From Acidobacteriota bacterium (lineage in GTDB: Bacteria; Acidobacteriota; Blastocatellia; Pyrinomonadales; Pyrinomonadaceae), in contig JANPDZ010000466.1 in NCBI GenBank assembly GCA_031431735.1, positions 1 through 50,122 of the forward strand: a DNA stretch of 50,122 nucleotides. Direction: 5' to 3'. Shown piece by piece: positions 5,861 through 48,765 of the stretch. Every line of letters begins with the position of its first letter. The first letter of the stretch is position 1. Position numbers and translations under genes: made by a program. The notes under the pieces are model-generated. The model had not been told where the DNA came from. It saw only the letters and a list, made by a program, of their open reading frames with translations, and did no database searches.

Positions 5861-5885
5861 AATTAATTTCGGCTGAATATTCACA

Positions 5886-16429: not shown

Positions 16430-16435
16430 AAATTT

Positions 16436-16512
16436 AGTGCAAAGTGCATAGTGCAAAGTGCATAGTGCAATAGCCTTTTTAACTATGCACTTTGCACTAT
16501 GCACTTTGCACT
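16436..16512. repeat. GTGCAWA heptamer hairpin in the aguB-aguA spacer
   Basis: AGTGCAAAGTGCATAGTGCAAAGTGCATAGTGCAAT .. loop .. ACTATGCACTTTGCACTATGCACTTTGCACT. Confidence 0.8.
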
Positions 16513-17401
16513 AATCAATGAATCGTTTCTGCAAATCACCGTACTTCTCAATGCGGCGGTCGCGCAAAAATTGCCAGTTGCGGCGGACATCTTCCATCCG
16601 GGCACGGTCAATTTCGACCACTAAAACTTCTTCTTTATCATCGCTTGCCTGCGCGATGACGACGCCGAATGGATCGGCGACAAAGCTGTGTCCCCAAAAT
16701 TGGATTCCGTCCGTGCCTTCGTTAAAAATCTCGTGTCCGACGCGATTGACCGAGGCGACAAAAATTCCGTTGGCGATCGCGTGTGAACGCTGAATAGTCT
16801 GCCACGCGTCCTGCTGTGATGCGCCAACCTCTTCTTTTTCAAATGGATGCCAGCCAATCGCCGTCGGATAAAAAAGAATTTCCGCGCCGCGCAGTGCCGT
16901 TAATCTTGCGCCTTCGGGAAACCATTGATCCCAACAGATCAGCGTGCCGATCTTCGCCGTCGGCGTATCAAAAACCTTAAAGCCGAGATCGCCCGGCGTG
17001 AAATAAAATTTTTCGTAATACGAAGGATCGTCCGGGATGTGCATCTTTCGATAAATTCCGACAATTTCACCGTCTTCGCCGAGAACGGCAAGGCTGTTGT
17101 GATGCATTCCCATCGCCCGCCGTTCAAAAAGCGGCACGATGATCGTCACTTTTAATTCTTTAGCCACCGCGCCCAGAGTCATCGTTGACTTGCCGGGAAT
17201 CGTTTCCGCAAGGTTAAAAAGGTCAACGTCTTCACGCTGACAAAAATACTGCGACCGAAACATTTCCGGCAAACAAATAATTTTTGCGCCTTTCCCTGCG
17301 GCTTCGCGGACGAATTCGCCGGCGCGTTTGAGATTCTCGTCCACATCGGCGGACATCGCCATTTGCACCAAACCGATCGTGTATTTATCGTTTGTACTCA
17401 T
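16511..17401 (-). CDS. aguB: N-carbamoylputrescine amidase (CN-hydrolase)
   Basis: Nitrilase-superfamily blocks CLPEMF, YRKMHIP, LICWDQWFPE (catalytic Cys); adjacent to agmatine deiminase. Confidence 0.8.
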   Translation of the reverse strand: MSTNDKYTIGLVQMAMSADVDENLKRAGEFVREAAGKGAKIICLPEMFRSQYFCQREDVDLFNLAETIPGKSTMTLGAVAKELKVTIIVPLFERRAMGMHHNSLAVLGEDGEIVGIYRKMHIPDDPSYYEKFYFTPGDLGFKVFDTPTAKIGTLICWDQWFPEGARLTALRGAEILFYPTAIGWHPFEKEEVGASQQDAWQTIQRSHAIANGIFVASVNRVGHEIFNEGTDGIQFWGHSFVADPFGVVIAQASDDKEEVLVVEIDRARMEDVRRNWQFLRDRRIEKYGDLQKRFID

Positions 17402-19840: not shown

Positions 19841-19920
19841 TTTGCCTGCGAAAAACACGAAATACACTAAAAGAATTTTTAAATAAATTTTCGTTTCTTT
19901 CGTGTCTTTCGTGGGCAAAA
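19841..19920. repeat. hairpin of TGCCYRCG / CACGAAA type
   Basis: TTTGCCTGCGAAAAACACGAAA versus TTTCGTGTCTTTCGTGGGCAAA, between divergent tyrS and proC. Confidence 0.65.
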
Positions 19921-21095: not shown

Positions 21096-21279
21096 TTTAG
21101 AAACAAATTTACAAGTTTTCCCAGTTTTTGCGAGAAAAAAAACTTGGTAATCAGGCAAAGAAGGATTACAATAAATCAATTTCGGAAAAAAAGAAGCAGA
21201 CGGACTTGAGCTAATTTCACACTAATTTGCGAGTAGTATAGTTGGAGAGAAATTTTCAGTTCGGGAATTTTTATTATTG

Positions 21280-24129
21280 ATGGAGAAACTAATGAATAAA
21301 TATCGCTTAAATGTTGTCGCGGATTTGCAGCGGGTAATTTTTGTTATCGGATTATCGATAATCGCGCTTGCGGTTTTTTTCTACTTGCCAAAATCAGCCG
21401 AAATGCAGTCTGATTCCAAACTGTCGGAGCAAAATTTAGTGCTTGGCAGATTGGCGCATTCGCAGAAAACTTTGAGAGCACTTCCGTTTCCGCACGTCGC
21501 GTTTGAAGTTGTCCGCACCGCCGATTCGCAAGGTACGGGACAAATTACGTTGACGGGTTTCCCGCCATCGGCAAGCGAGCCGACGTGGTCGCCGGACGGG
21601 ACGAAGATTGCGTTTGTCGCTTTTAATGCGAGTTCGGATATTTATGTGATGAACGCCAACGGAAGCGGGCAGACTTTTTTGACCAATACGATGACGGCGA
21701 ATGAGCGAAATCCGTCTTGGTCGGTGAACGGAAAAATCGCTTACGAGCGCGACGGACAGATTTGGGTGATGAACGCGGACGGTACGAATCAAATTCAGTT
21801 TTCCGGCATTTCACAACCTTCGCCAACTTCTCCGGCGTGGTCGCCAAATGGAACGAAACTTGCTTTTTCGAGCGGCGGCGAAATTTGGGTGATAAACTCG
21901 GACGGCACGAACGAACAGCGCGTTACGATGAATGCGACGACGGATGCTGATCCGGCGTGGTCGCCCGACGGTTCAAAAATCGTTTTCGCCAAAGGTGGTT
22001 TGGGAATTGCCGTGATTAACTCCGACGGCACAAACGAGATGAATTTGACCAACGGAACGAATGACCAAAAACCGTCGTGGTCGCCCGATGGCACGACAAT
22101 CGCGTTTGTCAGATCCGGAGCCGGAATTTATATAATGGATGTGAACGGTGCAAATCAGGTCAGAATTATCGCCGATCAACCAGTCGGGATCGGTATAGAC
22201 GGCACTCGAAACAATGACCCCGAATGGCAGCCAATCGCGCAAACACCGAATACTTTTACAATTAGCGGACGAATTACACGCGAAGGTGCGAATTTGAGCG
22301 GCGCAATTGTTAATCTGAGCGGCTCGACAAATGCCGCAACGACGACTGACGCGGTTGGGAATTATCAATTTTCCAATCTCTCGACAGGCGGAAATTTTAC
22401 GATTTCGCCGTCGTTTGTGAATCACTTTTTCACGCCTGCGAACCGTATTTTTAATAATCTGAGCAGTAATCAAATCGCCGATTTTGCTGCCGTTGAAGTT
22501 TGCACGACGGCAAATTGCGTGAAGAACGGCAAGATTGCGTTCGCCCGAGGTTCGGGAATTTGGACAATGAGCACGGACGGCACGAATCAGACAAATATCA
22601 CCAACGGGACATCGCCGAATTATTCGCCCGACGGCTCAAACATCATTTTTTCAACCAACCGCGACGGCAATAACGAGATTTACAGAATGAACGTGGACGG
22701 AAGCAATCCGCTGCGTTTGACAAATAATACGGCATCGGAAACTTCGCCGAATTATTCGCCCGACGGTGCATCAATCGTTTTTGTCAGCAACCGCGACGGC
22801 AACGGTGAAATTTATAAAATGAACGCTGACGGCACAAATCAGGTTCGTTTGACGACAAATACAACTGCGGACGATGTTCCGACTTATTCGCCCGACGGCA
22901 GTAAGATTATTTTTGTCAGGAACGTCAGCACTGGGTTCAACGGCAATATTTGGACAATGAATTCGAACGGCACGAATCAACAGATACTGAACACCGCTGT
23001 GGGTTTTTATAATCGTCCGTCGTATTCGCCCGACGGCGCAAAAATTATTCTTGTCTATGATGGCGGGGTGGACATTACCGCACAGGACATTTGGACAATG
23101 AACGCCGACGGCACAAATCTTGTGCGGTTTCCGGTTGGTCGGTCGAGTCCGTCGTATTCGCCCGACGGCGCAAAAGTCGTCCACACCTGTTGTTTTAATA
23201 TCGATGCTGGGATGGACGGTATCCGGGTGAATGGGACAATTTTGACGCTCGGAGGGGGAGATACTTTACCCGATTGGCAGCCGATTCTCGCCCCGCGCCG
23301 TGTGCCGTTTGATTTTGACGGCGACGGACGCTCGGACATTTCGGTTTTCCGTCCGGCGGACAGAATTTGGTATTTGCTTCGTTCACAGGGAGGTTTTACT
23401 GCGCTTCAATGGGGACTTGCGACCGATACGCTCGTGCCTGCCGATTATGACGGCGATTTGAAAATCGACATCGCTGTTTGGCGCAGTTCGGACAGGAATT
23501 TTTATATTTTTAACAGTTTTAATAACACGGTGCGAATCGAAAATTTCGGTCTGTCGGGCGACGTTCCAACGGGCGGCGATTTTGACGGCGACGGCAAGGC
23601 GGACTTGGCGGTTTATCGCGGCGGAGCGCAAGGCATCTTTTATTATCGAGGTTCTTCAGGAAATCCAAACGGAAATATCACGATTATTCCCTGGGGAATT
23701 TCCGGCGATAAACCGGTCGCAGGCGATTTTGACGGCGACGGCAAAACGGACGCGGCGATTTTCCGACCGTCGAGCGGCGTTTGGTATGTCCGCCAAAGCA
23801 CGGACGGACAGCTCCTCGCAAATGCTTTCGGTTTGGCAAACGACACGCTCGTTCCGGCGGATTATGACGCGGACGGCAAAACCGATTTAGCGGTTTATCG
23901 CGACGGCATCTGGTATATTTTGCGCTCGCTTCAAGGTTTTACGGCGTTTCAATACGGACTTTCAAATGATGTGCCTGCGCCCGCCGATTACGACGGCGAC
24001 GGTCGCGCAGATGCGGCGGTTTATCGCAACGGTATTTGGTGGATTTTGAAAACGCAATCGGGAACGACGGAAGTTGTTTCGTTCGGTTTGGGCGGCGATA
24101 AGCCGATTCCGGCGGCGTATGTCAGGTAA
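21280..24129 (+). CDS. large secreted/anchored PD40 (TolB-like) beta-propeller plus FG-GAP/VCBS repeat protein
   Basis: N-terminal hydrophobic anchor; about a dozen WSPDG/YSPDG PD40 repeats; CarboxypepD_reg-like segment ISGRITREGANLSGAIVNLSG..GNYQFSNL; C-terminal DFDGDG..D..V(F/Y)R repeats. Confidence 0.8.
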   Translation: MEKLMNKYRLNVVADLQRVIFVIGLSIIALAVFFYLPKSAEMQSDSKLSEQNLVLGRLAHSQKTLRALPFPHVAFEVVRTADSQGTGQITLTGFPPSASEPTWSPDGTKIAFVAFNASSDIYVMNANGSGQTFLTNTMTANERNPSWSVNGKIAYERDGQIWVMNADGTNQIQFSGISQPSPTSPAWSPNGTKLAFSSGGEIWVINSDGTNEQRVTMNATTDADPAWSPDGSKIVFAKGGLGIAVINSDGTNEMNLTNGTNDQKPSWSPDGTTIAFVRSGAGIYIMDVNGANQVRIIADQPVGIGIDGTRNNDPEWQPIAQTPNTFTISGRITREGANLSGAIVNLSGSTNAATTTDAVGNYQFSNLSTGGNFTISPSFVNHFFTPANRIFNNLSSNQIADFAAVEVCTTANCVKNGKIAFARGSGIWTMSTDGTNQTNITNGTSPNYSPDGSNIIFSTNRDGNNEIYRMNVDGSNPLRLTNNTASETSPNYSPDGASIVFVSNRDGNGEIYKMNADGTNQVRLTTNTTADDVPTYSPDGSKIIFVRNVSTGFNGNIWTMNSNGTNQQILNTAVGFYNRPSYSPDGAKIILVYDGGVDITAQDIWTMNADGTNLVRFPVGRSSPSYSPDGAKVVHTCCFNIDAGMDGIRVNGTILTLGGGDTLPDWQPILAPRRVPFDFDGDGRSDISVFRPADRIWYLLRSQGGFTALQWGLATDTLVPADYDGDLKIDIAVWRSSDRNFYIFNSFNNTVRIENFGLSGDVPTGGDFDGDGKADLAVYRGGAQGIFYYRGSSGNPNGNITIIPWGISGDKPVAGDFDGDGKTDAAIFRPSSGVWYVRQSTDGQLLANAFGLANDTLVPADYDADGKTDLAVYRDGIWYILRSLQGFTAFQYGLSNDVPAPADYDGDGRADAAVYRNGIWWILKTQSGTTEVVSFGLGGDKPIPAAYVR

Positions 24130-27706: not shown

Positions 27707-27857
27707 TAAGCAGGTGAGCATAAGTTTCGAGGTATTTTGAAAAGTTTTGAGTCCCGGATTTATGCGGCAAACCGCCAGCGAAGCGTGGCGGTTACACGCT
27801 AAAGCGTGGACTCTGAACGAAGAGCAAAATGTCGCAAAACTTATGCTCACCTGCTTA
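27707..27857. repeat. nested palindromic element with GAGTCC core
   Basis: 21-bp perfect outer arms TAAGCAGGTGAGCATAAGTTT / AAACTTATGCTCACCTGCTTA; core 27749-27818 with CCGCCAGCGAAGCGTGGCGG and CACGCTAAAGCGTGGACTCTGAAC. Confidence 0.75.
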
Positions 27858-28057: not shown

Positions 28058-29464
28058 ATGCTTAAAGAAAAAATTGCCAAAGAAACCACAAAGAATAGTT
28101 TCTTAACCGGACCGGAAATAACCACAAACATATCGATTGTGAAGAGTTTGATATTTTGCATTGCATTTGTATTGTTGACATCAAATGTATTTGCGCAAAA
28201 AGAAGTGAGGACGGATTTTCCGACTCAAAAAGAAGTGAGGACGGATTTTCCGACTCAAAATGTCCCGAATGAAGGAAAAATGTCAAAAAAAATTATTCCC
28301 GATTCGTATATCATCCTTTTTAATGAAGATGATCTCCAACCATACATAAAGAAAAGCCCTGCGGGAGAAAATGACAACCGCGAAGAAAAAGCAAATGATG
28401 CCCAAAAATATGAGGAACAAATGACTGTTACTCTTAGAAAAATAGCTCAAGACAAATTGGGTATTACTTCTGAGATGATTACCGAATATTATACCACTGC
28501 AACAACCGGGATTAAGATTCAGGTCAAAAACGATCAGGCGAAACGGATACTTGAAAGATTGAAAACCGTCAAAGAAGCGGCGGCAATGGTTCAAGATTTT
28601 GAAATCACCGCTTTCGAATCTGCCGTTGTGCCGGCGACAAACTTTTTAATGTTTTTTAGACAAACGCCAAGCTGGGGCGTGAGTATTGTCGGCAGCGGTA
28701 ACTATACGGGAAATAAATGGGCATGGGTGCTTGATACAGGAATTGACACCACACATCCTGATTTGAATGTTAAGTCATCGTCACCTTTTGCAGTTTCATT
28801 TATCAGCGGACAATCATTTGTTGACGGTTTTGGTCACGGCACGCATGTCGCCGGAATCATTGCCGCCAGAAACAATCGAATCGGCACGCTTGGCGTCGCT
28901 GCCGGGGCAACTGTTGTTCCGGTCAAGGTTCTTTCCAACTCCGGTGCAGGGTCTTGGGGCGCATTACTTTCCGGTCTCAATCACGTTGCCAAATATTATC
29001 TCCCCGGAGATGTTGTCAATATGAGTTTGGGCGGTCCCGCGCCGGATTGGTTCACCGACGCATTTATTTGGTGGGACGTTAGAAAACAATCGGAAAATGC
29101 GATCAGAAATTTAGGCAATGCCGGAGTGTTCTGTGTCATTGCGGCAGGTAATGACAATCAAAATGCAAATAATGTGACGCCCGCCAGAATTAATGGAAAC
29201 AGAGTCTATACTATATCTAATATGGATTGGAATAGAAACTTATCCGGTTCTTCTAATTATGGAAACGCCCCTGTGGATTATGCGGCTCCCGGAGAGAATA
29301 TTTTATCAACGTATATGGGCGGAGGCTATGCTTATATGAGCGGAACCTCAATGGCGGCACCTTTTGTTTCAGGAATTTTATTAATAAACAACGGAGTAAT
29401 TAACACCTCCGGTGTGGTTAATACCGATAAAGATGCGACCAAAGACCCGATAGCCGTTAGATAA
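28058..29464 (+). CDS. secreted S8 (subtilisin-family) serine protease
   Basis: Catalytic triad blocks VLDTGID, HGTHVAGIIAA, SGTSMAAPFVSG; N-terminal anchor/signal; A+T-rich relative to neighbours. Confidence 0.85.
   Translation: MLKEKIAKETTKNSFLTGPEITTNISIVKSLIFCIAFVLLTSNVFAQKEVRTDFPTQKEVRTDFPTQNVPNEGKMSKKIIPDSYIILFNEDDLQPYIKKSPAGENDNREEKANDAQKYEEQMTVTLRKIAQDKLGITSEMITEYYTTATTGIKIQVKNDQAKRILERLKTVKEAAAMVQDFEITAFESAVVPATNFLMFFRQTPSWGVSIVGSGNYTGNKWAWVLDTGIDTTHPDLNVKSSSPFAVSFISGQSFVDGFGHGTHVAGIIAARNNRIGTLGVAAGATVVPVKVLSNSGAGSWGALLSGLNHVAKYYLPGDVVNMSLGGPAPDWFTDAFIWWDVRKQSENAIRNLGNAGVFCVIAAGNDNQNANNVTPARINGNRVYTISNMDWNRNLSGSSNYGNAPVDYAAPGENILSTYMGGGYAYMSGTSMAAPFVSGILLINNGVINTSGVVNTDKDATKDPIAVR
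28199..28258 (+). repeat. perfect 30-bp tandem duplication inside the S8 gene
   Basis: AAAGAAGTGAGGACGGATTTTCCGACTCAA twice, encoding KEVRTDFPTQ KEVRTDFPTQ just after the signal peptide. Confidence 0.9.
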
Positions 29465-32740: not shown

Positions 32741-33355
32741 ATGGTTGATTTAATTCCGTCGTCAGAATCGGTGATGGCGATTTTGCAAGAAACGGGCGCA
32801 TATCGCAAAGGACATTTCAAATACCCGAACGGCAAACACGCTTCGCATTATTTTCAGATGCCGTTGGCGTTTCGTTATTACAATAATGCAAGAGTTATGT
32901 CGGTCGGTTTAAGCCGAATGTTTCGGCTGGAAAAAGCGATTTCCAGCCGCTTGCCCAAAATTTCGGTGATCAGTCCGAGTCCGGGCGGCATTGTCGTCGC
33001 TTTTGGCGTGCGCGAAGCTTTGTCTGCCGAACAGATTTACTGGGCGGAAATGGAAGACGGCAAGCGTCAATTTCGTCAATATATCGGCGAAGGTGATGTT
33101 CATCCGGCAATTATCGTTGACGATATAATTCGTTCGGGCAAAGCAATAGAGGAAACCTTTAATCTCGTCAGAGAATTGGGTGCGGAAGTTATCGGTTGTG
33201 GCGCGATCGTCAGATTTGAAGACTCGCCGACCGAAATTGACGGTGTTCCGGTTAAAAGTTTGATGACGTTTGACGTAAATTTCTATGAAACAGAAGAAGA
33301 ATGGAAACATTCCCGAAACGCATCTGACACCGACGAACAAAAAGTTAGATTTTAA
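32741..33355 (+). CDS. type I phosphoribosyltransferase (orotate PRTase-like)
   Basis: RBS AGGAGA before ATG 32741; PRPP-binding loop AIIVDDIIRSGKAI. Confidence 0.65.
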   Translation: MVDLIPSSESVMAILQETGAYRKGHFKYPNGKHASHYFQMPLAFRYYNNARVMSVGLSRMFRLEKAISSRLPKISVISPSPGGIVVAFGVREALSAEQIYWAEMEDGKRQFRQYIGEGDVHPAIIVDDIIRSGKAIEETFNLVRELGAEVIGCGAIVRFEDSPTEIDGVPVKSLMTFDVNFYETEEEWKHSRNASDTDEQKVRF

Positions 33356-33535
33356 AGTGAAAAAGGGTAAAAGGGTAAGAGGGTAAAAGGGGAAAGGGGA
33401 AAAAGTTTGATCGCAAATTATCGACTAAACTTTTACCCTTTTACCCTTTTACCCTCTTACCCTCTTACCCTCTTACCCTCTTACCCTCTTACCCTCTTAC
33501 CCTTTTACCCTTTTACCCTTTTTCACTTTTTCACT
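33356..33535. repeat. GGGTAAAA octamer hairpin with unequal arms
   Basis: Left arm about 5 units (GGGTAAAA GGGTAAGA GGGTAAAA GGGGAAA..), loop, right arm about 13 units of ACCCTTTT/ACCCTCTT; between convergent genes. Confidence 0.85.
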
Positions 33536-34896
33536 TTGTTGAGTTTCTTAAAGAGACTGCGTCTTTCCGCCAGTAATCTCAAAAACTTCTCGCGTTTGAG
33601 AAAAAACAGCGAAATGGCTTTGAGCCAGCCGCTCAGATCGCCGATTTCTTCAAGCGAACGAAGCGCGATATAACCGCCCAAAAACGAAACCGGAATCGAA
33701 AGCAAGGCGATTAGCCAGCCGAAATAAAAATCTAAAACACCCGCGAAAATCAGCCACGTCAAAGGCATCAGAACTATCGCTGACAAAAACTTGACCGTCG
33801 AAGCCATATCAAAATAACCTTTTTTGATTTGCAAATAAGCTAAGACCTTGCCGAATTGATACGCGGGAAAATGCAAAACCGTGCCGAAGATGGCGAGCGG
33901 CGCAAGCAAGATCAAATACCACGAACGCCAAAGAGCGTGTTTCAAAACAAATCTCTTTGAATAATCGGCAAGCGCGAGAAATTCCGATTCGATGCCGAGT
34001 TGGTCGAGTTTTTTATTATATTCGGCAAGTCTTTTTTCGAGTTTTGCATCCAAATTATTCGGCGGTTCGGCGACGAATTTCTGCAAAAATTCTAATCTTT
34101 CCGCCAGATTTTCCTCGTGCGGCGTGGTCGCAGTAAAAACATCTTCGGCGATTCGTGCGACGGCAATTTCCGCGTCGGATTCGGCATTTAAAGTTACTTC
34201 GCGCAGAGATTTTTCGATTTTCTCCGTCAATTCCCGAACGGCTTGGCGCGGCGGTTGTCCCTCTTCATCCAATTCAACCGGCAAAACCGGAAAAGGCGTG
34301 CCGAAATGAAGCAGTGCCTCGCTTCGAAAAGTCGTTTTGTTGGTGTAATAAAGTCCGACCGGAACGATTTGCAGATCGAGCGACGAAGGGTTTTTGCCGA
34401 CCGAAACCGTGCCAAGTGCAATTCGCGCCGCACCGGTTTTTAGCGGCTGAAGTTTGGGTTTGTCGTGCGAGATTCCTTCGGGGAAAATCGCGATCACGCC
34501 GCCATTTTTGAGTAGTTCACGCGCCACCGCGAAAGTTTCCTGATTTTTGGAAACGTCCGCGCCCGAATCTTGCTGACGATAGAGCGGAAGCGCGCCGACC
34601 GTGCGAATCAGATAACCGATCACGGGCATCTTAAAAAGTGTCGATTTGGCAAGAAACGCTAATTTTCGCGGCAGCGCAATAAACAAAAGCGCGGGATCAA
34701 TCAGCGCGTTCGGATGATTGCTGACAAAGATCAAACCGCTTGTTTTCGGCAGATTTTCGTAATTATAAAGCTCGATCTTTCTAAAAAAGATGCTGATGCC
34801 AACACCGAAAATAAAATGGATCAGCCACAAAGCAAAAGAGCCTCGACGATGCAGAATCACATCACCAAGGCGTAGTTTTTTCACGTCAGTCTTCAT
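33523..34896 (-). CDS. PlsC-family 1-acyl-sn-glycerol-3-phosphate (lysophospholipid) acyltransferase with C-terminal membrane domain
   Basis: NHPNALID (HX4D), FPEGISH blocks; TM helices in the C-terminal third; stop lies in the octamer repeat. Confidence 0.7.
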   Translation of the reverse strand: MKTDVKKLRLGDVILHRRGSFALWLIHFIFGVGISIFFRKIELYNYENLPKTSGLIFVSNHPNALIDPALLFIALPRKLAFLAKSTLFKMPVIGYLIRTVGALPLYRQQDSGADVSKNQETFAVARELLKNGGVIAIFPEGISHDKPKLQPLKTGAARIALGTVSVGKNPSSLDLQIVPVGLYYTNKTTFRSEALLHFGTPFPVLPVELDEEGQPPRQAVRELTEKIEKSLREVTLNAESDAEIAVARIAEDVFTATTPHEENLAERLEFLQKFVAEPPNNLDAKLEKRLAEYNKKLDQLGIESEFLALADYSKRFVLKHALWRSWYLILLAPLAIFGTVLHFPAYQFGKVLAYLQIKKGYFDMASTVKFLSAIVLMPLTWLIFAGVLDFYFGWLIALLSIPVSFLGGYIALRSLEEIGDLSGWLKAISLFFLKREKFLRLLAERRSLFKKLNKVKK

Positions 34897-34901
34897 TTGC
34901 C

Positions 34902-34977
34902 GATTTGGGATTTAGGATTGCGGATTGCGGATTGCTCGGTTATCAAATCCGCAATCCGCAATCCTAAATCCCAAATC
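34902..34977. repeat. GATTGCG heptamer hairpin (32-bp stem)
   Basis: GATTTGGGATTTAGGATTGCGGATTGCGGATT - GCTCGGTTATCA - AATCCGCAATCCGCAATCCTAAATCCCAAATC, between recR stop and plsC-like start. Confidence 0.85.
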
Positions 34978-34979
34978 CA

Positions 34980-35594
34980 TTAGATTTCATGGCGGTTTGC
35001 CATTGCTTTGTCCATCGTCACTTCGTCCACAAATTCCAAATCCGAACCGACCGGCATCCCCATCGCAATCCGCGTCACACGAACTCCCAATGGTTTCAGA
35101 AGACGCGCAATATAATTCGCCGTCGCTTCGCCTTCGGTCGTCGGATTCGTCGCGATGATGATCTCTTTGACCTCGACACCTTCATTATTATTCGGCATCA
35201 GACGCGGAAACAGATTCGCGATCATTAATTCATCGGGACCGATGCCGCGAATCGGTGACAGAGAGCCGTGCAAAATGTGATACAAACCTTTATAAGAACG
35301 TGTTTTTTCGATGGCGACGAGATTATAAGGTTCTTCGAGCACGCAAATCTGCGAACGGTCGCGCGTGGGCGAAGCGCAATACATACACGGATTGATGTCC
35401 GTCATATTGTTGCAAACGGAACAGAAAACGATTTTTTCCTTGACCTCGCGCAGCGCGTCAATAAAATTTTCGACTTCCGCGAGCGGACGGCGCAAGATAT
35501 GAAAAGCCAATCTTTGCGCTGATTTATGTCCGATTCCGGGCAGCCGCTTAAATTCGTCGATCAACTTGGCGACAGGTTCTGAATATTCCAACAT
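34980..35594 (-). CDS. recR: recombination protein RecR
   Basis: N-terminal Hh[19 protein letters not shown]4 zinc finger CSVCNN..CMYC, Toprim domain. Confidence 0.9.
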
Positions 35595-35599
35595 ATTTC

Positions 35600-35698
35600 G
35601 ATTTGGGATGTCGGATTGCGGATTGCGGATTTATTTCAAGAGAGAAAACTTTGTTTCTCGTTAGATAAATCCGCAATCCGCAATCCCAAATCCGCAAT
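35600..35698. repeat. GATTGCG heptamer hairpin in the ybaB-recR spacer
   Basis: GATTTGGGATGTCGGATTGCGGATTGCGGATTTA .. TAAATCCGCAATCCGCAATCCCAAATCCGCAAT. Confidence 0.8.
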
Positions 35699-36003
35699 TA
35701 CATGAGTCCGGGCGGCAGCATTCCGCCGAGTTTTCCTTTGAGCGATTCTTCGACCTTGCGCCGCGCTTCATTGAGTGCCGCAACCGCCAGATCCTGAATC
35801 ATTTCGGTGTCGCCGTCTTTGACCAGATCGGGCGAGATCGTCAATTCCAAAACTTCAAAATCGCCGCGCATTTTGACCGTCACCGCGCCGCCGCCGGCGG
35901 ACGCGTCAACGGTCATCTGTTTCATTTCCTTGCCCATTTGCTCCTGCATTTTCTGGGCTTGTTTCATCATCGAATTCATATCAAATCCGCCTGGAAATTT
36001 CAT
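35698..36003 (-). CDS. ybaB: YbaB/EbfC-family nucleoid-associated protein
   Basis: ~100 aa, MMKQAQKMQEQM..VTV.M.GD.EV..L.I.P.LV.D.D.EMIQDL pattern; upstream of recR as usual. Confidence 0.85.
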   Translation of the reverse strand: MKFPGGFDMNSMMKQAQKMQEQMGKEMKQMTVDASAGGGAVTVKMRGDFEVLELTISPDLVKDGDTEMIQDLAVAALNEARRKVEESLKGKLGGMLPPGLM

Positions 36004-36198
36004 AATTTTTTTCTCATCCTTAAATATATAATTGCAAAAAAACTGTCCGGTAATTATAACATTTCATTTCTACAAATGTCTTTCGGCGGAAATTATACCG
36101 CAAATATTTTTTCTGAATGGTCTGTCAAATCTCTACCTGACACAAGTAAGTGATTCCTTACTTGCTTTTTGCGATCATCTGCATTACAAATTAATTTG

Positions 36199-37065
36199 AT
36201 GGAAATCAATTGGAAAAATAACGCCAAAAAGCCGTATCTGTTTCTCCAAAAAGCCGAATGGACCGGTCTGACGGTTCATCGGGCGCGTGTTTTGCCCGGT
36301 TCAATTGTTGAACACGCCAATCCGTATCACGAAGTTAATCTGTCAATTTCGGGCAATTTGATGACCGAGAAAATTTCGGCCGGCGGCAAACGCATCAGGA
36401 CAAAATGCGCGCCGGGAAATCTTTGCATCACGCCGGCAAATCAACTAATTGGTGCGTTTTGGGAAAAACCGTTGGACAATATGGGGTTTTTCCTTGAACC
36501 TGAGTTTGTGACCAAAACCGCTCTCGAAAATCGTTTTTCGTCCAATTTTGAATTTCACGAAGTGTACGAAGAAAAAGACCCGCTGATCCAGCATATCGGT
36601 CTCGCTCTGCTTGCCGAATCAAATACGAAAAGCAACGCCGGAAGGCTTTACGCCGATTCGCTGATTCAATCGCTGACGCTTCATCTTTTGAAAAATTACA
36701 GCAACGCCGCCACCGTTCAAGAGAACATTAACGGCGGACTTTCGGGCTACAAATTACGCCGCGTGCAGGAATTTATCAACGCGAACCTCGAGGAAGATCT
36801 GTCTTTGGCAGAAATTGCCGAAGTCGCCGATCTGAGCCAATTTCATTTTGCCCGCGCCTTCCGCAAATCAACCAATCTGACACCGCAGCAATATCTGATG
36901 CAGCAGCGCATCGAACGCGCCAAAGAACTTCTGGCAAAAGAAGATCTGCCGATCGTCGAAATCAGTCTGCGGACAGGCTTCAAAAATCAAAGCCATTTCA
37001 CGACGCTTTTCCGCAAATTCACGAAATTTACCCCGAAACTCTGGCGCGAACTCAAGCACGCTTAA
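36199..37065 (+). CDS. AraC-family transcriptional regulator
   Basis: C-terminal double HTH (LSLAEIAEVADLSQFHFARAFRKSTNLTPQQYLMQQRIERAKELL .. IVEISLRTGFKNQSHFTTLFRKF). Confidence 0.8.
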   Translation: MEINWKNNAKKPYLFLQKAEWTGLTVHRARVLPGSIVEHANPYHEVNLSISGNLMTEKISAGGKRIRTKCAPGNLCITPANQLIGAFWEKPLDNMGFFLEPEFVTKTALENRFSSNFEFHEVYEEKDPLIQHIGLALLAESNTKSNAGRLYADSLIQSLTLHLLKNYSNAATVQENINGGLSGYKLRRVQEFINANLEEDLSLAEIAEVADLSQFHFARAFRKSTNLTPQQYLMQQRIERAKELLAKEDLPIVEISLRTGFKNQSHFTTLFRKFTKFTPKLWRELKHA

Positions 37066-37180
37066 GAAAGGGAAAAAGGGTAAAAGGGTAAAAGTTTGCT
37101 CATTCGTAGGCAATCAAACTTTTACCCTTTTACCCTTTTACCCTTTTACCCTTTTACCCTTTTACCCTTTTACCCTTTTA
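37066..37180. repeat. GGGTAAAA octamer hairpin with unequal arms (second copy of family)
   Basis: Left arm 2-3 units, loop GTTTGCTCATTCGTAGGCAATCAAAC, right arm 7 units of ACCCTTTT. Confidence 0.85.
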
Positions 37181-39421: not shown

Positions 39422-39532
39422 AGGGTAATTTCGGCGTGTCGCCTGACGGAAAATTCGGGCGGCACGCCGTTTTTGAAAATAGAAAAGTGACGGCGGTTTC
39501 TCTTAAAAAACCTGCCAAAGATAGGAGAATTT

Positions 39533-40324: not shown

Positions 40325-42481
<2,157 letters not shown>

Positions 42482-43287: not shown

Positions 43288-43336
43288 GTAATGCCTCAGT
43301 AAAAATTAGGAATTCATATTTTTACTGAGGCGTTAC
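43288..43336. mobile_element. minimal copy (termini only) of the GTAATGCCTCAGTAAAAA element
   Basis: GTAATGCCTCAGTAAAAATTAGGAATTCATATTTTTACTGAGGCGTTAC. Confidence 0.55.
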
Positions 43337-43402: not shown

Positions 43403-43427
43403 AAATCCGAAATCCGAAATCCGAAAT
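43403..43427. repeat. tandem heptamer array AAATCCG x3
   Basis: AAATCCGAAATCCGAAATCCGAAATT just upstream of ATG 43434. Confidence 0.7.
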
Positions 43428-43433
43428 TGAAAT

Positions 43434-43967
43434 ATGCCTTCAGGAAAAACACACGACGCAATCACATTTCTCTTTGTCGCACCCGTTTTTGTGGCGGCGT
43501 GGCGCGTTACCGAAAACACTGCGATTTCCGCCGTCATCACATTTGCCTTTTTATTTGGCGGATTGATGTTTGGTCCTGATCTGGACACGATGAGCAAACA
43601 ATATACGCGCTGGGGAATTTTGCGTTTTTTGTGGTTTCCTTATCAGAAATTTTTCGCACATCGTTCGCGCTGGTCGCACGGACTTGTTTTCGGAACCTTT
43701 CTGCGCGTCGTTTATTTTATGGGCGCATTGACGCTCATTGCCTTTGCCGTTGTTTATATTTACGCGAGTTATGCCGGCGGCAACTTGCCTGATCTGCTGG
43801 AAATGGCGAAGACCTGGGGTGAACTCGGCGAAATGGTTCGTAAAAACATCGGTGAATATTTTTTACCGTCCGTTTTTGTCGGATTGTGGCTCGGCGCGGC
43901 AAGCCATACGCTGACCGATATGGCGGGAACATTCGTCAAAACCAGAAGAATTACGGAATTCTTATAA
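43434..43967 (+). CDS. membrane protein, DUF2227-like putative metal-binding protein
   Basis: MPSGKTHD N-terminus, several TM helices, conserved His clusters (HRSRWSHG, ASHTLTD). Confidence 0.45.
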   Translation: MPSGKTHDAITFLFVAPVFVAAWRVTENTAISAVITFAFLFGGLMFGPDLDTMSKQYTRWGILRFLWFPYQKFFAHRSRWSHGLVFGTFLRVVYFMGALTLIAFAVVYIYASYAGGNLPDLLEMAKTWGELGEMVRKNIGEYFLPSVFVGLWLGAASHTLTDMAGTFVKTRRITEFL

Positions 43968-43971: not shown

Positions 43972-44040
43972 GGATTTGAGATTGCGGATTGCGGATTTGA
44001 AGAAAAACAATCCCAAATCCCAAATCCGCAATCCCAAATT
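43972..44040. repeat. GATTGCG heptamer hairpin between convergent genes
   Basis: GGATTTGAGATTGCGGATTGCGGATTTG .. CAATCCCAAATCCCAAATCCGCAATCCCAAATT. Confidence 0.75.
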
Positions 44041-44043: not shown

Positions 44044-45285
44044 TCATCTGCCCGCTCGTGCGTTTGCGAGCCGCAGCGACTGTTTGCGGACGGCATCGGA
44101 AACATTGCGATTTTTCGACATTGCGAGTAAATCGCGAAGTTGCAGACGCGTCAGAATACTGATTACATTGCCCATCGGCGTTCGCGGGTTCGATGCCAAT
44201 TTGAGCATGATCTGATAATTTCGCGCCCACGCCCGGTTGATCGCGATCATCCGCAAAACATCTTCGGGAACCGATTTCATCGAAGCGATTTTTTCCACTT
44301 CCTGTTCGGTAATGCGGTTATTCTGGATAACTGCCTGCGCGACGATGCGGTTTGGATCGCGAATCAGAATATTTCGTGCTTCGCGGTCGCCTTTCATCGC
44401 CAATTTTACGCGGTCTTTCATACCCATTTTCAGAATGCGATTGATCATCGAAATCCGTTCGCCGGAAATCGAATCTTCCTCGAATTTGAGTTCGCCCAAG
44501 ATCTTGTCAACAATGGCCGCACGTTCTTCGGGCGATTCTTCGTAGAGTTCTTCGATAAATTCGAGCGACAGCCAACTGTCATCAACCTCGTCGTCGGGAA
44601 CTTCGATATGTTGGGCAAGCAGAATCGCGTCGTCAAAACTGATTTCAAAACCTTTCGGGTCATCGGAGATCGCCGCCTTTTCGATAAATTCAGCCGCCGC
44701 TTCTTTACCTTGGGCGCGAAGCTCGCTGGCGATTTGCTGGGCGCCGCGTTCTTTTTCAAAAAACTCGCGTTTGACTTCCTGGGCGCGGCGTTCGGCTTCT
44801 GATGTCCGATAGGTATTGGCGATGATCGCATCAATGATCGCCGGGGCTTTGATCAAAAGCTGTTGATTAAAGGAGATCAATTCGAGAAGGTCGCCACTGG
44901 TCGTTTTTCGGGCAAGTTTGACGATCGATTGTTCGGGCGTTCGCGTATTTTGAACGATTGCTTCGCAAATCTCGTTTGGCAGATTTTCGTAATCGGAGAA
45001 AAAATCCAGTACACGCGGCGCAACTTCGTGTGATTGAACAACATCTTTGAGAGATGTTGCGATCTGCGAGGAAATAGTCTGACGCGCATTTTCGGCAAGG
45101 TTCGCATCCGGGTTATCGGCCAATGCAACCAAGATCTCAAGTAAATCGTTTTGCGCCAAAGGCAGCAGTCCACGCGCGGCAGCCATCTTGACAGGCTGCG
45201 GCGCAGTTCCCCCAATGATGGATTTGACGACCGGGTTTGTCGAATTTACTTCAAAATTCATAAAATTGGCTGGATATTTCGGCAA
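44044..45285 (-). CDS. hypothetical helical-repeat (HEAT/ARM-like) protein
   Basis: 413-aa ORF, acidic, repeated leucine-rich helical segments; no catalytic motif recognised. Confidence 0.5.
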   Translation of the reverse strand: MPKYPANFMNFEVNSTNPVVKSIIGGTAPQPVKMAAARGLLPLAQNDLLEILVALADNPDANLAENARQTISSQIATSLKDVVQSHEVAPRVLDFFSDYENLPNEICEAIVQNTRTPEQSIVKLARKTTSGDLLELISFNQQLLIKAPAIIDAIIANTYRTSEAERRAQEVKREFFEKERGAQQIASELRAQGKEAAAEFIEKAAISDDPKGFEISFDDAILLAQHIEVPDDEVDDSWLSLEFIEELYEESPEERAAIVDKILGELKFEEDSISGERISMINRILKMGMKDRVKLAMKGDREARNILIRDPNRIVAQAVIQNNRITEQEVEKIASMKSVPEDVLRMIAINRAWARNYQIMLKLASNPRTPMGNVISILTRLQLRDLLAMSKNRNVSDAVRKQSLRLANARAGR

Positions 45286-45350
45286 TTAGGAGTTTTCTGT
45301 TATCAGGCAAGTCCGCAAAAAAGACTTGCAGGCAAATATTATAACATAAC

Positions 45351-45530
45351 CTGAGTCGCGAGTTGAGAGTCGCGAGTCGCGAGTCGTTTGAAATATGACG
45401 CGCATCAAACAGATTTTTCCGGCATCTTTCCAAATGGGTCGTAGAAATCGAAGATTTGATGAGATTCGGCCTCACAAATCACTGACGCACACCCGACTCG
45501 CGACTCGCGACTCTCAACTCACGACTCGGA
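45351..45530. repeat. GAGTCGC heptamer inverted arms separated by ~105 nt
   Basis: CTGAGTCGCGAGTTGAGAGTCGCGAGTCGCGAGTCG (45351-45387) versus CGACTCGCGACTCGCGACTCTCAACTCACGACTCGG (45494-45529). Confidence 0.8.
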
Positions 45531-45763
45531 TTAACATAAACCGCTTAATGCCAAACCAAGCAGATTTGTTGGAGCAATTTGACAATTAGAGCAAGTGTTT
45601 TCACAATATAAATTCATCTTTTCCAACAAAAAGATGCGGATTGAAACGACTATCGAAAAAGCATAAATTAAATTAAGATTTTGCGGAAAAAAGCCCCTTT
45701 TCTTCGCAAAATAAACCTTATTGATAAAGCATTTATATTTTGAATCCAAAAAGAACAATAAAA

Positions 45764-48232
45764 ATGGTAAAAGACGATCTAAAAAATCTTATTACGGAAA
45801 GAAGTGCTCGAATCGGTGTCATCGGACTCGGTTATGTCGGTTTGCCGCTGATCATCGAATTTGCACTGAAAGGCTTTCCAACCGTCGGTTTTGAAGTTGA
45901 CGCGAAAAAAGTTGACGTGCTCAACACAGGCGTTTCGCACATCGTTGACGTTTCTTCGGAAAACGTTCAAAAAGCGATCGAAGCCGGAAAATTTACGGCA
46001 ACAACCGATTCTTCGCAGCTGAAAGATTGCGACGTGATCATTATCTGCGTTCCGACACCGCTCAGAAAAACGAAAGACCCCGATATGTCATATATTTTGG
46101 CGGCGGGCGAACAGATCAAAAAATATGCGCGGCGCGGGCAACTTGTCATTTTAGAATCTACAACATATCCCGGCACGACCGACGAAATTCTCCAACCGAT
46201 GATCGAAGAAGCTGGCTTAAAACTCGACGAAGATTTTCTGCTCGCGTTTTCGCCCGAACGCGTTGATCCGGGCAATCCGCAATATCAAACGCACAATATT
46301 ACAAAGGTCGTCGGCGGTGTCGGCAAAGATTCGACCGAGGTTTCCGCGCTTCTTTATGCGCAAATTGTCGAAAATGTTCATCCCGTTTCGTCGGCCCGCG
46401 TCGCGGAAGCCGCCAAACTCTGGGAAAACACATTTCGCGCCATCAATATCGGAATGGCAAATGAAATGGCCAAGGTCTGCAACGCGCTCGGCATTGACAG
46501 CTGGGAAGTGGTGCGCGCCGCCGCGACCAAACCGTTCGGCTTTATGCCGTTCTATCCCGGTCCCGGAATCGGTGGGCATTGTTTATCGGGCAAAGAAACT
46601 GTTATCGTGCGCGACGAAAACGGTAAAAAAATCGAAAATCTGGCGGAACTTTTTACAAATGAAGGCACGAAAAATCGTGTTCGCCGATTTGAAGTTCACG
46701 GAAGCGATGTGATTTACAAACCTAACCTTGAGGCTTTGTCAATCAATATGGAAACGAACAAAGCGGAATGGAAGCCCGTTGAGTATCTTTTCCGCCGCCA
46801 AACCGATGTTGATTTGGTAAAAGTTACAACCAGCGACAATCGCACTATAACCGTTACCGATTTGCATCCGATGCTTGTGGCTGACGAAAACGGCAAACTA
46901 ACGGAAGTTTTTGCGAAAGATTTGAAAGCGGGAAATCGTTTGCCGATTCATCACGCTGAGGAAAATATCGAAAGTGGAAATATAAAGATTGATTTACTTA
47001 AATTCGTTTCTGCTTCATCGGCTGAAAAGATTCGTGTTTGTCTGCGCGAAGGAAGTTTTTATAATTACCATGAAGTTTTGAAAAAACATATCTCGGCGGA
47101 AAAGGTTTGGGAACTTTCCAAAATTAACTATTTAAGTTTGAAAGACTTTTTGAAAGCCGAAAAGGATTTGAATGTCTCGCGTGAAAACCTGATTTTGCGA
47201 ATCGGACGCGGAAATTCGGCTAGTTCTTTTCCGGCGATAGTTGAAATTACGTCGAATGTTGCCCGTTTGATCGGTTATTATTTGGCGGAAGGCTGTGCGA
47301 CGACCGAAAAGGGCAATGAGCGAATTCGGTTTAGCTTTCATTGCAAAGAAAACGAATTTATTGAAGATGTTTGTAGTATTTTGAAGTCTGATTTTGGCGT
47401 AGAAACATCACTTATTCATTCAAATGTTGACCAAGTTACTCATATTCGCGTTGCTTCGGCGTTATTCGGTTGGTTTTTGGTTGAAGTCTTAAAATGCGGA
47501 AAGCGTTCGACTGAAATGCAGATCCCTGACCGTTTATTAAATCTTTCCACTTCGCATAAAACCGAACTTTTGAAAGGTCTTTTGCGCGGCGACGGCGATG
47601 TTTATGTTAAGTCGGGAATGAATTCTTACGAGAAAAACGGCAAAATTTATGAGCATCGAAATACAACTGCCGAAGTCGGATATTTTTCGAGCAGTCCGAA
47701 ACTTTTCCAGCAGGTAGTTTATCTTTTACAGGAGCAAGGTTTCACGCCGACCTGCAAACGCACCAAACCGCACTTGCAAATGAAAGGACGCGAACAACTT
47801 GAAAGAATGTCGAACTGGTTAGGCGAAAAAGGAGCAAAACTTCAAACTTATTTTGCCAATAATTTGCGAAAAGTTAAGAGCAAAACTTTCAAATCATTCG
47901 GTGGAATTATGACCGTTCCCGTCAAAGCCATCGAGATTATCAAAACAACTAAACCTTTTGAAGTTTTCTCGATTGAGGTTGAAGGAAATCATACTTTTGC
48001 GACATCTTATGGCGTTTTTGTTCATAATTGCATCCCTTTGGACCCGCATTATCTTTCGTGGAAGGCGCGGCAGCACGGATTTGATTCGCAATTTATCACT
48101 TTGGCGGAGCAAATCAATTCGGGAATGCCGAAATATGTTGCCGGACTCGTGCGCGATGCTTTGAACGATAACGAAAAATCGGTCAAGGGCGCGAAGATCT
48201 TGATTTTGGGCGTGGCGTATAAAAGATATTGA
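45764..48232 (+). CDS. nucleotide-sugar dehydrogenase (WbpA/WecC-like UDP-N-acetyl-hexosamine 6-dehydrogenase) interrupted by an intein; frame ends prematurely at 48232
   Basis: N-extein IGVIGLGYVGLP Rossmann motif ..PFYPGPGIGGH; C-extein CIPLDPHYLSWKARQHGF..ILILGVAYK; ATG 45764 preferred over TTG 45740. Confidence 0.8.
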   Translation: MVKDDLKNLITERSARIGVIGLGYVGLPLIIEFALKGFPTVGFEVDAKKVDVLNTGVSHIVDVSSENVQKAIEAGKFTATTDSSQLKDCDVIIICVPTPLRKTKDPDMSYILAAGEQIKKYARRGQLVILESTTYPGTTDEILQPMIEEAGLKLDEDFLLAFSPERVDPGNPQYQTHNITKVVGGVGKDSTEVSALLYAQIVENVHPVSSARVAEAAKLWENTFRAINIGMANEMAKVCNALGIDSWEVVRAAATKPFGFMPFYPGPGIGGHCLSGKETVIVRDENGKKIENLAELFTNEGTKNRVRRFEVHGSDVIYKPNLEALSINMETNKAEWKPVEYLFRRQTDVDLVKVTTSDNRTITVTDLHPMLVADENGKLTEVFAKDLKAGNRLPIHHAEENIESGNIKIDLLKFVSASSAEKIRVCLREGSFYNYHEVLKKHISAEKVWELSKINYLSLKDFLKAEKDLNVSRENLILRIGRGNSASSFPAIVEITSNVARLIGYYLAEGCATTEKGNERIRFSFHCKENEFIEDVCSILKSDFGVETSLIHSNVDQVTHIRVASALFGWFLVEVLKCGKRSTEMQIPDRLLNLSTSHKTELLKGLLRGDGDVYVKSGMNSYEKNGKIYEHRNTTAEVGYFSSSPKLFQQVVYLLQEQGFTPTCKRTKPHLQMKGREQLERMSNWLGEKGAKLQTYFANNLRKVKSKTFKSFGGIMTVPVKAIEIIKTTKPFEVFSIEVEGNHTFATSYGVFVHNCIPLDPHYLSWKARQHGFDSQFITLAEQINSGMPKYVAGLVRDALNDNEKSVKGAKILILGVAYKRY
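46580..48028 (+). other. 483-aa class-1 intein with LAGLIDADG homing-endonuclease domain
   Basis: Starts CLSGKETVIV (Cys1), block B TVTDLHPM, LAGLIDADG motifs ARLIGYYLAEGCA and LLKGLLRGDGDVY, ends GVFVHN followed by +1 Cys (CIPLDP); more A+T-rich than exteins. Confidence 0.85.
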
Positions 48233-48565: not shown

Positions 48566-48765
48566 CATTACTGAGCGGTCTAAAAATTGCAATGGCTTTG
48601 AAAACTAAGAATATCTGCCCACGCGCACACACTAAACAAACGAAAAAAAGCATTTTTGCCAAATCTTTTTTCTTGTTTTCGTGCGTGCGCGTGTGTGCGC
48701 GTGGGCAAAAATCTTAAAATATTTCATACTTTTCAAGTAAGCAATAACTATGCCGCTCAGTAATG
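48566..48765. repeat. nested palindrome, TGCCCACG type
   Basis: Outer CATTACTGAGCGG / CCGCTCAGTAATG; inner TCTGCCCACGCGCACACAC / GTGTGTGCGCGTGGGCAAA. Confidence 0.65.

Follow-up and report, generated by a model that had tools for sequence, protein, structure and literature searches.

The 50,122-nucleotide stretch analysed here (the window; positions 1 to 50,122 of contig JANPDZ010000466.1, assembly GCA_031431735.1, from a member of the Pyrinomonadaceae within the Acidobacteriota) carries three co-directional genes on its minus strand, ybaB/ebfC (35698-36003), recR (34980-35594) and an acyltransferase gene (33523-34896), and the spacers between them are occupied by two hairpins whose arms are inverted arrays of tandem heptamers. 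A preliminary description, made from the letters alone, had named recR and ybaB and had placed recR between two hairpins of GATTGCG-type units. Pfam confirmed the gene identities, assigning YbaB/EbfC to the ybaB product and Toprim_4, RecR_HhH, RecR_ZnF and RecR_C to the recR product, and it also identified the acyltransferase. The bracketing of recR was likewise upheld by the coordinates, the arm pairing and the predicted folding of both hairpins. Hairpin B (35600-35698, minus strand) fills the 103-nt spacer between the ybaB stop codon (35698-35700), which adjoins its 5′ arm, and the recR ATG (35592-35594). Hairpin A (34902-34977, minus strand) fills most of the 83-nt spacer between the recR stop codon (34980-34982) and the acyltransferase ATG (34894-34896), which lies 5 nt past it.

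The two arms of hairpin A (34902-34933 and 34946-34977) are 32 nt long, 100% complementary and separated by a 12-nt loop. They read GATTTGG-GATTTAG-GATTGCG-GATTGCG-GATT followed by the exact mirror image, in agreement with the 32-bp stem of GATTTGG/GATTGCG units described earlier, and the RNA of the recR sense strand is predicted to fold with -56.6 kcal/mol (z = -11.0 against dinucleotide shuffles). Hairpin B has 48-nt arms (35601-35648 and 35651-35698) that are 81% complementary, with a GATTGCG/GATTTGG stem as its core (arrays 35612-35631 and 35668-35698) and a small inner hairpin in its loop; its sense-strand RNA reaches -50.6 kcal/mol (z = -10.3 against the same kind of shuffles). The recR start lies ~5-8 nt past the 3′ arm of hairpin B, and no Shine-Dalgarno motif was found upstream of recR. 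The best sigma-70-like promoter match for the ybaB-recR unit lies upstream of ybaB (36082-36053, minus strand), and neither recR spacer contains a promoter-like site. An apparently spurious open reading frame (ORF) of 77 amino acids (34925-35158, plus strand), opposite recR, starts within hairpin A and reads through the array, because GATTGCG arrays are stop-free in all frames.

The orthologous junctions were compared in 161 recR loci obtained from genome and metagenome scans, 140 of which have ybaB directly upstream. Spacers of at least 40 nt (n = 133) were considered well folding when z was below -3 against shuffles. By this measure 119 of the 133 ybaB-recR spacers fold well, and 7 is the best period in 118; the predicted stem begins a median of 2 nt past the ybaB stop codon and ends 5 nt before the recR ATG. 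The dominant heptamer, however, takes 37 different forms at this single junction (among them GATTTTG, GATTGCG, CAGTTAT, GTGGTAA, GAGAGTA, GTGAAAA and CAGATTC). The fraction of shared 7-mers collapses below ~96% recR DNA identity, and by 93-95% units are no longer shared. The recR genes of L093 and L095, for instance, are 96.6% identical, yet these loci carry GTAGAGA and GTGGTAA units, and L028 and L027, at 95.6%, carry GGTAAAC and CAGATTC. Structure, period and position are thus kept family-wide, whereas the sequence turns over more rapidly than the synonymous divergence of the adjoining gene would suggest. This combination is the strongest result of the analysis. The contrast of conserved architecture and unconserved sequence, which had been noticed within the window, holds there and, once orthologous intergenic regions were compared as had been proposed, holds more strongly at one junction in ~130 genomes. 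The conserved architecture argues for a common mechanism of origin, a common structural role, or the two together.

The ybaB-recR spacer is bimodal in length, measuring either 3-4 nt, as in the hairpin-free genomes L069, L144 and L146, or ~75-120 nt with a hairpin, and the spacers that fold weakly are heptamer hairpins in a visible state of decay. In four loci (L003, L015, L020 and L064; ~4930-5000) the arm before the recR ATG is (TAACTGA)n, with its inverted partner (CAGTTAT)n past the ybaB stop codon. On the other side of recR, 36 of the 47 recR-acyltransferase spacers with kept synteny fold with z < -3. Where synteny is broken downstream (L003, L008, L016, L024 and L027), recR is followed by an ordinary G+C-rich stem with a T-tract. 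The closest recR relatives (85-96% amino acid identity) all belong to Pyrinomonadaceae or other Acidobacteriota metagenome-assembled genomes (MAGs); some of these are closed long-read chromosomes, and an assembly artefact is therefore unlikely. Exact-protein look-ups for RecR and YbaB, seeking strain-level variants, gave no match, and the metagenome scan returned no relative above 94%.

Abundance, placement and polarity of the hairpins

The class was surveyed in the window together with 80 related loci (L001-L080), 771 kb of sequence. Arrays were found with Tandem Repeats Finder (at least 2.8 copies), an array with a complementary partner within 300 nt was counted as a hairpin, and ORFs were called heuristically after the arrays had been masked. 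Two junctions of each surveyed locus are the recR junctions by which the locus was fetched, and these were also analysed separately. The sequences come from MAGs that are mutually related and hence not independent, and much of the weight falls on one orthologous junction. Period 7 was found in 224 of 339 tandem arrays and almost never in shuffled sequence. The sample contains 134 inverted-array hairpins, about one per 6 kb. A further 143 arrays have no partner, and many of these represent one half of a hairpin that has decayed. Their arms have a median length of 24 nt, made up of about four 7-nt units each (sometimes units of 8-9 nt), with a mean complementarity of 93%. The median loop is 28 nt; loops exceed 20 nt in 72% of hairpins and are 10 nt or shorter in only 4%.

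With ORFs called after array masking, 133 of the 134 hairpins lie outside them. By junction type, hairpins are present at 84 of the 424 with co-directional genes, at 33 of the 154 with convergent genes and at just 6 of the 129 with divergent genes; background occupancy is ~20% of junctions. The nearest stop codon lies a median of 3 nt from the stem. The earlier assignment of these elements to gene ends is borne out by this short distance and by their depletion between divergent genes. Outside the recR junctions, co-directional hairpins sit near the upstream stop codon but usually ~100 nt from the next start, with just 2 of 21 lying close to both codons, so that the general anchor is the stop codon and not the start. 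Furthermore, a Shine-Dalgarno motif precedes 1 of 53 hairpin-preceded genes, compared with 30% of other genes. The 132 hairpins for which units were tabulated contain 78 distinct units, whose composition in the G-rich orientation is 27% G, 34.5% A, 31% T and 7.5% C. Unit sharing within a locus (27%) only weakly exceeds sharing between loci (16%), and we rejected a genome-specific unit repertoire or genome-specific spread on this ground.

The two arms differ in composition: C is scarce in the arm that adjoins the stop codon, and G in the arm that adjoins the start following it. The 5′ arm is G-rich in 95 hairpins and C-rich in 19 (28 versus 2 at convergent junctions). This chirality reads alike on both strands of a palindrome, so hairpin polarity alone does not identify the strand concerned. 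Unpaired arrays of the 771-kb sample, read in the sense of the neighbouring gene, show G>C past stops (15:5) and C>G before starts (11:5). Loci fetched from other phyla with (GATTGCG)3 behave in the same way among the matches listed, with G>C in 48:3 post-stop arrays and C>G in 29:5 pre-start arrays. Among the same listed matches, these loci span Planctomycetota, Verrucomicrobiota, Gemmatimonadota, Chloroflexota, Bacteroidota and others, and 21 of 81 have a complementary arm within 130 nt. Opposite skews after stops and before starts are not those of one transcription-coupled mutation bias, and the polarity points to selection tied to position in the message. In the start-side arm, T:G mismatches number 22 against 43 of C:A type, and this arm seems to avoid G more strictly than pairing is kept. 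Backup stop codons were rejected as a cause of the C-poor first arm (73 of 132 units hold a stop, with ~50% expected from composition), and an asymmetry in which the C-rich arm would be longer or purer than the G-rich arm was not significant. GATTGCG and GATTCGG arrays were observed, among the matches listed, in many phyla including Xanthomonadales and Nostoc, over a G+C range of 0.43-0.73 (L161-L240, L280-L359), frequently paired in inverted orientation at the ends of genes (as in L169, L177, L179, L187, L193 and L199). GATTCGG was discarded as a specificity control for GATTGCG, being itself a natural repeat of the Xanthomonas type.

A reading as bidirectional terminators, one of those offered in the preliminary description, did not hold in its classical intrinsic form. 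The classical terminator, a short G+C-rich stem with a 3-8-nt loop and a U-tract behind it, was rejected because the hairpins lack a U-tract and have long loops; the 12 nt past the stem contain a mean of 4.4 T, and no heptamer hairpin is among the sites of the terminator scan of the window, the best of which is 39432-39469. Classical terminators are present in 0 of 32 convergent and 0 of 84 co-directional junctions with hairpins, as against 11 of 89 convergent and 15 of 240 co-directional junctions without them. This mutual exclusion leaves room for the hairpins functionally replacing terminators. Rfam covariance models gave 0 matches at gathering score over the whole window. A G-quadruplex would require a run of at least 3 G in each of at least 4 units. 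Such runs are missing from the recR units, GATTGCG and GATTTGG, as well as from the majority of the 78 units, and are present only in GGGTAAAA and GGGATTT types.

Within the window, the pattern GATTNNGGATTNNGGATT with at most one mismatch has 31 matches, where 0.02 are expected, and all of them lie at six sites (10846-10877, 12166-12316, 34902-34977, 35600-35699, 43404-43428 and 43973-44040). The claim of a GATTGCG family at six gene boundaries is therefore confirmed. The six members have the heptamer in common, and their loops and flanks are unrelated. Besides the recR hairpins, the family comprises a single G-rich GATTTGG/GATTGCG array of 4.7 copies (10846-10878, plus strand), 3 nt past the stop codon of a COQ7-like gene (10348-10842, plus strand) and with no complementary arm nearby, and a hairpin between convergent genes (12166-12316), in which GATTGCG x4.6 overlaps the TGA of a lipid A acyltransferase gene and faces CAATCCN arrays at 12239-12270 and 12284-12316. 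A single G-poor array, AAATCCG x3.6 (43403-43427, plus strand), ends 6 nt before the ATG of a DUF2227 gene (43434-43967, plus strand), and a GATTGCG/GATTTGG hairpin (43973-44040) separates this gene from a convergent one (44044-45285, minus strand).

Structurally equivalent hairpins with unrelated units had also been reported, and four were recovered, with folding z from -6.9 to -11.3. The first (16434-16514, minus strand) has 40-nt arms of GTGCAAA/GTGCATA (GTGCAWA) units and extends from the upstream TGA to 4 nt before the ATG at 16427-16429, the same stop/hairpin/start geometry as at recR. Two are built of octamers. One lies between convergent genes (33354-33530), where GGGTAAAA x5.6 faces CTTTTACC x12.6, adjoining both stop codons and overlapping the final codons of the acyltransferase gene with its CTTTTACC array; the other (37067-37180, plus strand), with GGGTAAAA x3.5 facing CTTTTACC x7.8, lies 1 nt past the stop codon of an AraC-family gene (36169-37065, plus strand). 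The fourth (45347-45533) has GAGTCGC/GAGTTGA units, mirrored in order, in its two 40-nt arms, which are 93% complementary and enclose a 107-nt loop; it sits in the spacer upstream of both 44044-45285 (minus strand) and 45740-48232 (plus strand).

The arrays also affect annotation, since ORFs run through them, as does the spurious frame at 34925-35158. The third array of the convergent hairpin, 12284-12316, encodes the last ~12 codons of an epimerase/dehydratase ORF (12279-13265, minus strand) whose Pfam match stops at residue 309 of 328; either the intergenic repeat was absorbed into the reading frame or the original stop codon was lost.

Other repeats of the window are of different kinds. A further family of hairpins, which has the conserved ends TGCCCACG ... 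CGTGGGCA and whose arms consist of ~9-nt CACGAAA/TTTCGTG units, is present at 169-246, 10931-11072, 11125-11210, 19849-19916 and 48625-48715 in divergent, convergent and co-directional spacers; unlike the heptamer hairpins it is conserved in sequence between genomes, and its GTGTNTTTC units are also found in L002, L017, L020 and L043. A palindrome resembling repetitive extragenic palindromes (REPs), TTGTCAGAACCGCCTGCGGTAGCGGGTGGTT (41681-41784; 34-nt arms, 36-nt spacer), falls within ORF 40325-42481 or at the latter's end, with the core of the palindrome also at L002 548-568, L004 335-355 and L073 4758-4906 and similar copies in Acidobacteriota loci L176 and L191. A perfect 28-nt inverted repeat (6013-6040 and 6125-6152, 84-nt spacer), a 33-nt inverted repeat (27707-27739 and 27825-27857) and an TTACTGAGGCAT-like motif flanking several structured spacers (near 272, 6160, 43295-43330, 48575 and 48755) may be further dispersed repeat families. 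Inside coding sequence there are a perfect 30-nt tandem repeat of 2.2 copies (28196-28260, in ORF 28058-29464) and 132-nt repeats (22612-22923) in a 950-amino-acid ORF (21277-24129) whose translated consensus has a TolB/PD40-type look. Two probable toxin-antitoxin pairs were read by eye, a RelE/ParE-like ORF (5296-5634) with a small upstream ORF (5624-5917), and a HicA-like ORF (7043-7231) followed by a HicB-like ORF (7244-7459).

Possible origin and function

A role at the level of the transcript is favoured, though with only moderate confidence, because the hairpins are placed with codon precision, the genes downstream of them lack Shine-Dalgarno motifs and the recR spacers contain no promoter-like site. 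The fuller account that we tentatively prefer, giving it a little under an even chance, is that the hairpins are lineage-wide Pyrinomonadaceae 3′-end elements of transcripts, renewed by slippage, which may couple translation at tight junctions. Replication slippage, favouring heptamers, would expand and homogenise the units, and copying between the arms within the palindrome by template switching would keep them complementary, so that the unit sequence would drift as a block while the structure stays. Template switching is known to occur at quasi-palindromes. A polymerase-slippage origin and a preference for heptamers have been proposed (summarised in PMC4679880, and PMC4692102). In function, the hairpin would be the REP-like 3′-end element of the upstream cistron, which would either hold back 3′-to-5′ exonucleases or signal pausing or termination without a tail. 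Protection of mRNA 3′ ends had been among the suggestions of the preliminary description and may apply, as may termination of the tail-less kind. The hairpin's near-perfect duplex of 22-32 bp could be a substrate of RNase III. REPs within 15 nt of a stop codon stall ribosomes, and REPs block exonucleases and stabilise mRNA, according to PMC12306157, which cites Liang et al. 2015 and Newbury et al. 1987. At the tight junctions (ybaB-recR, recR-acyltransferase and 16434-16514), the stem base would join the stop codon to the next start and bury the start region devoid of a Shine-Dalgarno motif, making downstream translation dependent on a ribosome that finishes the upstream gene and opens the stem base. 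The bimodal spacer, 3-4 nt or a full hairpin, fits such coupling.

Several observations weigh against this account. Minimum free energies compared between sense and antisense strands gave 46 vs 37 (p = 0.43) and 50 vs 73 (p = 0.22), and sense-strand mismatches of G:U type were not enriched over those of A:C type (66 vs 94). An RNA-specific signature is thus absent, and these comparisons give no support for selection on the sense RNA. A permutation test of mirrored unit order placed 53 of 57 hairpins above the null mean, none singly reaching p = 0.05, in a test that is biased by the selection of hairpins and was therefore set aside. Coupling can be only a special case, since only 2 of the 21 co-directional hairpins elsewhere are tight on both sides, and a stem 0-3 nt past the stop codon should hinder termination of the upstream gene. 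In addition, the evidence base leans on one orthologous junction, heuristic ORF calls and MAGs.

The hairpins might also be neutral, which we consider unlikely though still the most credible of the alternatives. Heptamer slippage and palindrome-templated correction would then renew inverted arrays in unconstrained sequence, expanding them up to the coding constraint at stop codons and sparing divergent spacers through promoter constraint. The dominance of period 7 among paired and single arrays, and in many phyla, fits this well, as do the very fast unit turnover, the missing wobble signature of RNA selection, the spilling of arrays into ORF ends and the slippage origin already put forward for heptamers (summarised in PMC4679880, and PMC4692102). 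A neutral process does not account for the retention of the hairpin in ~89% of ybaB-recR spacers of at least 40 nt, where loss is evidently viable (3-4 nt spacers) and the background is ~20%. Nor would a strand-neutral process or a single transcription-coupled bias predict opposite G/C skews after stops and before starts, and the hairpins replace the Shine-Dalgarno region of downstream genes. A distinctly less probable explanation is a function in duplex DNA where transcription units end, the palindromes either adopting a cruciform or slipped-strand conformation or offering sites to gyrase or nucleoid proteins, and so absorbing or relieving transcription-driven supercoiling. Such protein sites have been proposed for bacterial interspersed mosaic elements (BIMEs) and REPs. 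The two strands are equal in folding, a wobble bias typical of RNA is missing from the mismatches, the G-first chirality is identical on both strands, and the elements are enriched at convergent and co-directional gene ends, all as expected of DNA elements. A cruciform is nevertheless disfavoured because of the long loops, which oppose extrusion from duplex DNA, and because unpaired arrays are polar relative to the direction of the neighbouring gene; unit diversity speaks against a sequence-specific DNA-binding protein, and distances of 0-5 nt from stop and start codons fit a role in transcript or translation better.

About as doubtful as a DNA function is a device for termination-reinitiation that would span a long spacer and be the bacterial equivalent of ribosome shunting. 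In it, the base of the stem would set the ybaB stop codon, 2 nt before the stem, beside the recR start, 5 nt past it and without a Shine-Dalgarno motif, and a ribosome, on terminating and opening this base, would pass straight to the start that follows; with its 7-nt register the stem could shift and pair anew, cold-shock-type proteins could tune it, and elements past terminal genes would serve as 3′-end caps. Shunting of this kind would explain the bimodal spacer, the G-poor start-side arm and a structure kept with its sequence free. More remote still is in-register binding, in which the 7-nt unit would be the footprint of a protein, for example of the cold-shock type, that coats one arm and opens or closes the hairpin. 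Cold-shock-type OB-fold proteins contact ~7 nt of single-stranded RNA or DNA per domain. The strict 7-nt period whatever the sequence, and three-letter arms with little self-structure, would suit such a protein; CspB binds heptamer direct repeats with one protein per heptamer, as reviewed in PMC4679880, and a heptamer-binding factor has been postulated in Nostoc (bioRxiv 10.1101/2022.06.06.494920). Octamer and nonamer hairpins of like architecture exist, however, no candidate protein emerged, and no motif is conserved across the 78 units, a diversity that also makes unlikely the sequence-specific protein-binding arrays suggested in the preliminary description. Spread by a transposase, as palindromes resembling MITEs (miniature inverted-repeat transposable elements) or REPINs, is hardly to be believed. 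The GATTGCG family at six sites in 33 kb, identical heptamer arrays in many phyla (among the matches listed) and close relatives with abruptly different units at one site might suggest mobility. Yet the six members share only the heptamer and not loops or ends, copies are not near-identical, sharing within loci barely exceeds that between loci (27% vs 16%), and the same junction is occupied in ~90% of relatives. With 78 units in 132 hairpins and no common loop or flank in the six GATTGCG members, a REP/BIME/REPIN sequence family, in which one conserved palindrome recurs tens to hundreds of times per genome, was rejected.

If the hairpins are indeed 3′-end caps or coupling devices, they would constitute a widespread and overlooked layer of control over operon expression in soil bacteria. 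The question is now reduced to simple reporter and transcript-end experiments.

Relation to known heptamer arrays and palindromes

Tandem heptamers are, to our knowledge, the commonest long simple repeat of bacteria. They were reportedly described in cyanobacteria in 1990, by Mazel et al., whose short tandemly repeated repetitive (STRR) sequences STRR1-3 are said to have the units CCCCAGT, TTGGTCA and CAACAGT; none of these is among the window arrays or the 78 units. Literature searches for GATTGCG or GGATTTT array strings found no paper in the library searched, and a search on Pyrinomonadaceae and tandem repeats found nothing relevant. The preliminary description had taken the repeats for an undescribed class, which does not stand, as heptamer arrays are known in cyanobacteria (STRR, PMC2670836) and in Xanthomonas and Nostoc (PMC4692102), and the predominance of heptamers among long simple bacterial repeats is an old observation, as the summary in PMC4679880 has it. 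The class is thus already known but unexplained, and the Pyrinomonadaceae hairpins are a further case of it.

The closest parallel in placement is given by Rehm et al. 2015 (PMC4692102), who described heptameric arrays, GGGAATC in Xanthomonas and GGGGA(C/T)T in Nostoc/Anabaena, typically of ~4 copies. The Xanthomonas arrays are 89-93% intergenic, lie a mean of 28 nt away from the ORF upstream and 160 nt away from the one downstream, carry the G-rich strand as coding strand after stops and as non-coding strand before starts, and are depleted between divergent genes; they form 70-75 inverted pairs per genome, keep their positions while varying in length and sequence, and are transcribed, and no function was found (PMC4692102). 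Tandem 7-nt units in few copies, a non-coding bias, proximity to the upstream stop codon, depletion between divergent genes, G/C polarity and conserved location are all shared with the hairpins described here, and the Xanthomonas rule of placement and polarity extends to loci from several other phyla. In Xanthomonas and Nostoc, however, one dominant G-tract unit was read as G-quadruplex-forming, whereas here dozens of units coexist, mostly without G-tracts (GATTGCG, GTGCAAA, CAGTTAT). Inverted pairing, a minority arrangement in Xanthomonas, is the rule here, and the phylum differs.

Cyanobacterial STRR heptamers are intergenic, recur at many sites per genome and can form hairpins between hupS and hupL and upstream of hoxW (PMC2670836, PMC2408588); for the one between the co-transcribed hupS and hupL, transcript stability or translational coupling was proposed (PMC2670836). 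They resemble the present hairpins in their 7-bp tandem units folding between co-transcribed genes, and Nostoc (ATTGCGA)n is close to GATTGCG (PMC2670836, PMC2408588). STRRs were, however, described locus by locus in heterocystous cyanobacteria, with no systematic evidence reported on conserved position combined with unit turnover, on stop/start geometry or on arm polarity. With the REP/BIME elements of Escherichia coli and its relatives the hairpins share an extragenic palindrome near gene 3′ ends, between cistrons or convergent genes, with a stable stem lacking a U-tract, but REPs are one conserved ~35-nt family per genome, non-tandem and RAYT-linked, as opposed to the hypervariable sequence and period 7 seen here. 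In the 5′ untranslated region of Haemophilus influenzae hmw, an (ATCTTTC)n hairpin is a substrate of RNase III, and the number of repeats cannot change without the hairpin, transcription and RNase III (PMC12721329). There too one arm of a long RNA hairpin is a heptamer array that is transcribed, and the opposite arm is G-rich (PMC12721329), but the hmw case is confined to one phase-variable virulence locus and lies upstream of a gene instead of past a stop codon, its second arm is non-tandem, and repeat number sets expression. TAACTGA direct repeats of Beggiatoaceae, cyanobacteria and Bacteroidetes come in 2-6 copies, end one to a few nt before starts and were proposed to regulate translation (MacGregor 2015, PMC4679880). 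The TAACTGA repeats before the recR ATG in L003, L015, L020 and L064 recall them, but have an inverted partner, where one inverted case in 170 was recorded by MacGregor and one unit dominates per genome.

Set beside these systems, the Pyrinomonadaceae hairpins add a phylum, inverted pairing as the rule and many coexisting unit families that are mostly unable to form G-quadruplexes, together with a clean demonstration, at one orthologous junction, of structure kept through sequence turnover. Since most units lack G-tracts, the G-quadruplex is not the common denominator, and it is removed as a general explanation of heptamer arrays. The ybaB-recR junction amounts to a clean natural experiment, with a hairpin in ~90% of ~130 genomes and at least 37 units: period 7, arm pairing, contact with the stop codon and a C-poor arm followed by a G-poor arm are conserved, whereas sequence and G-quadruplex potential are not.

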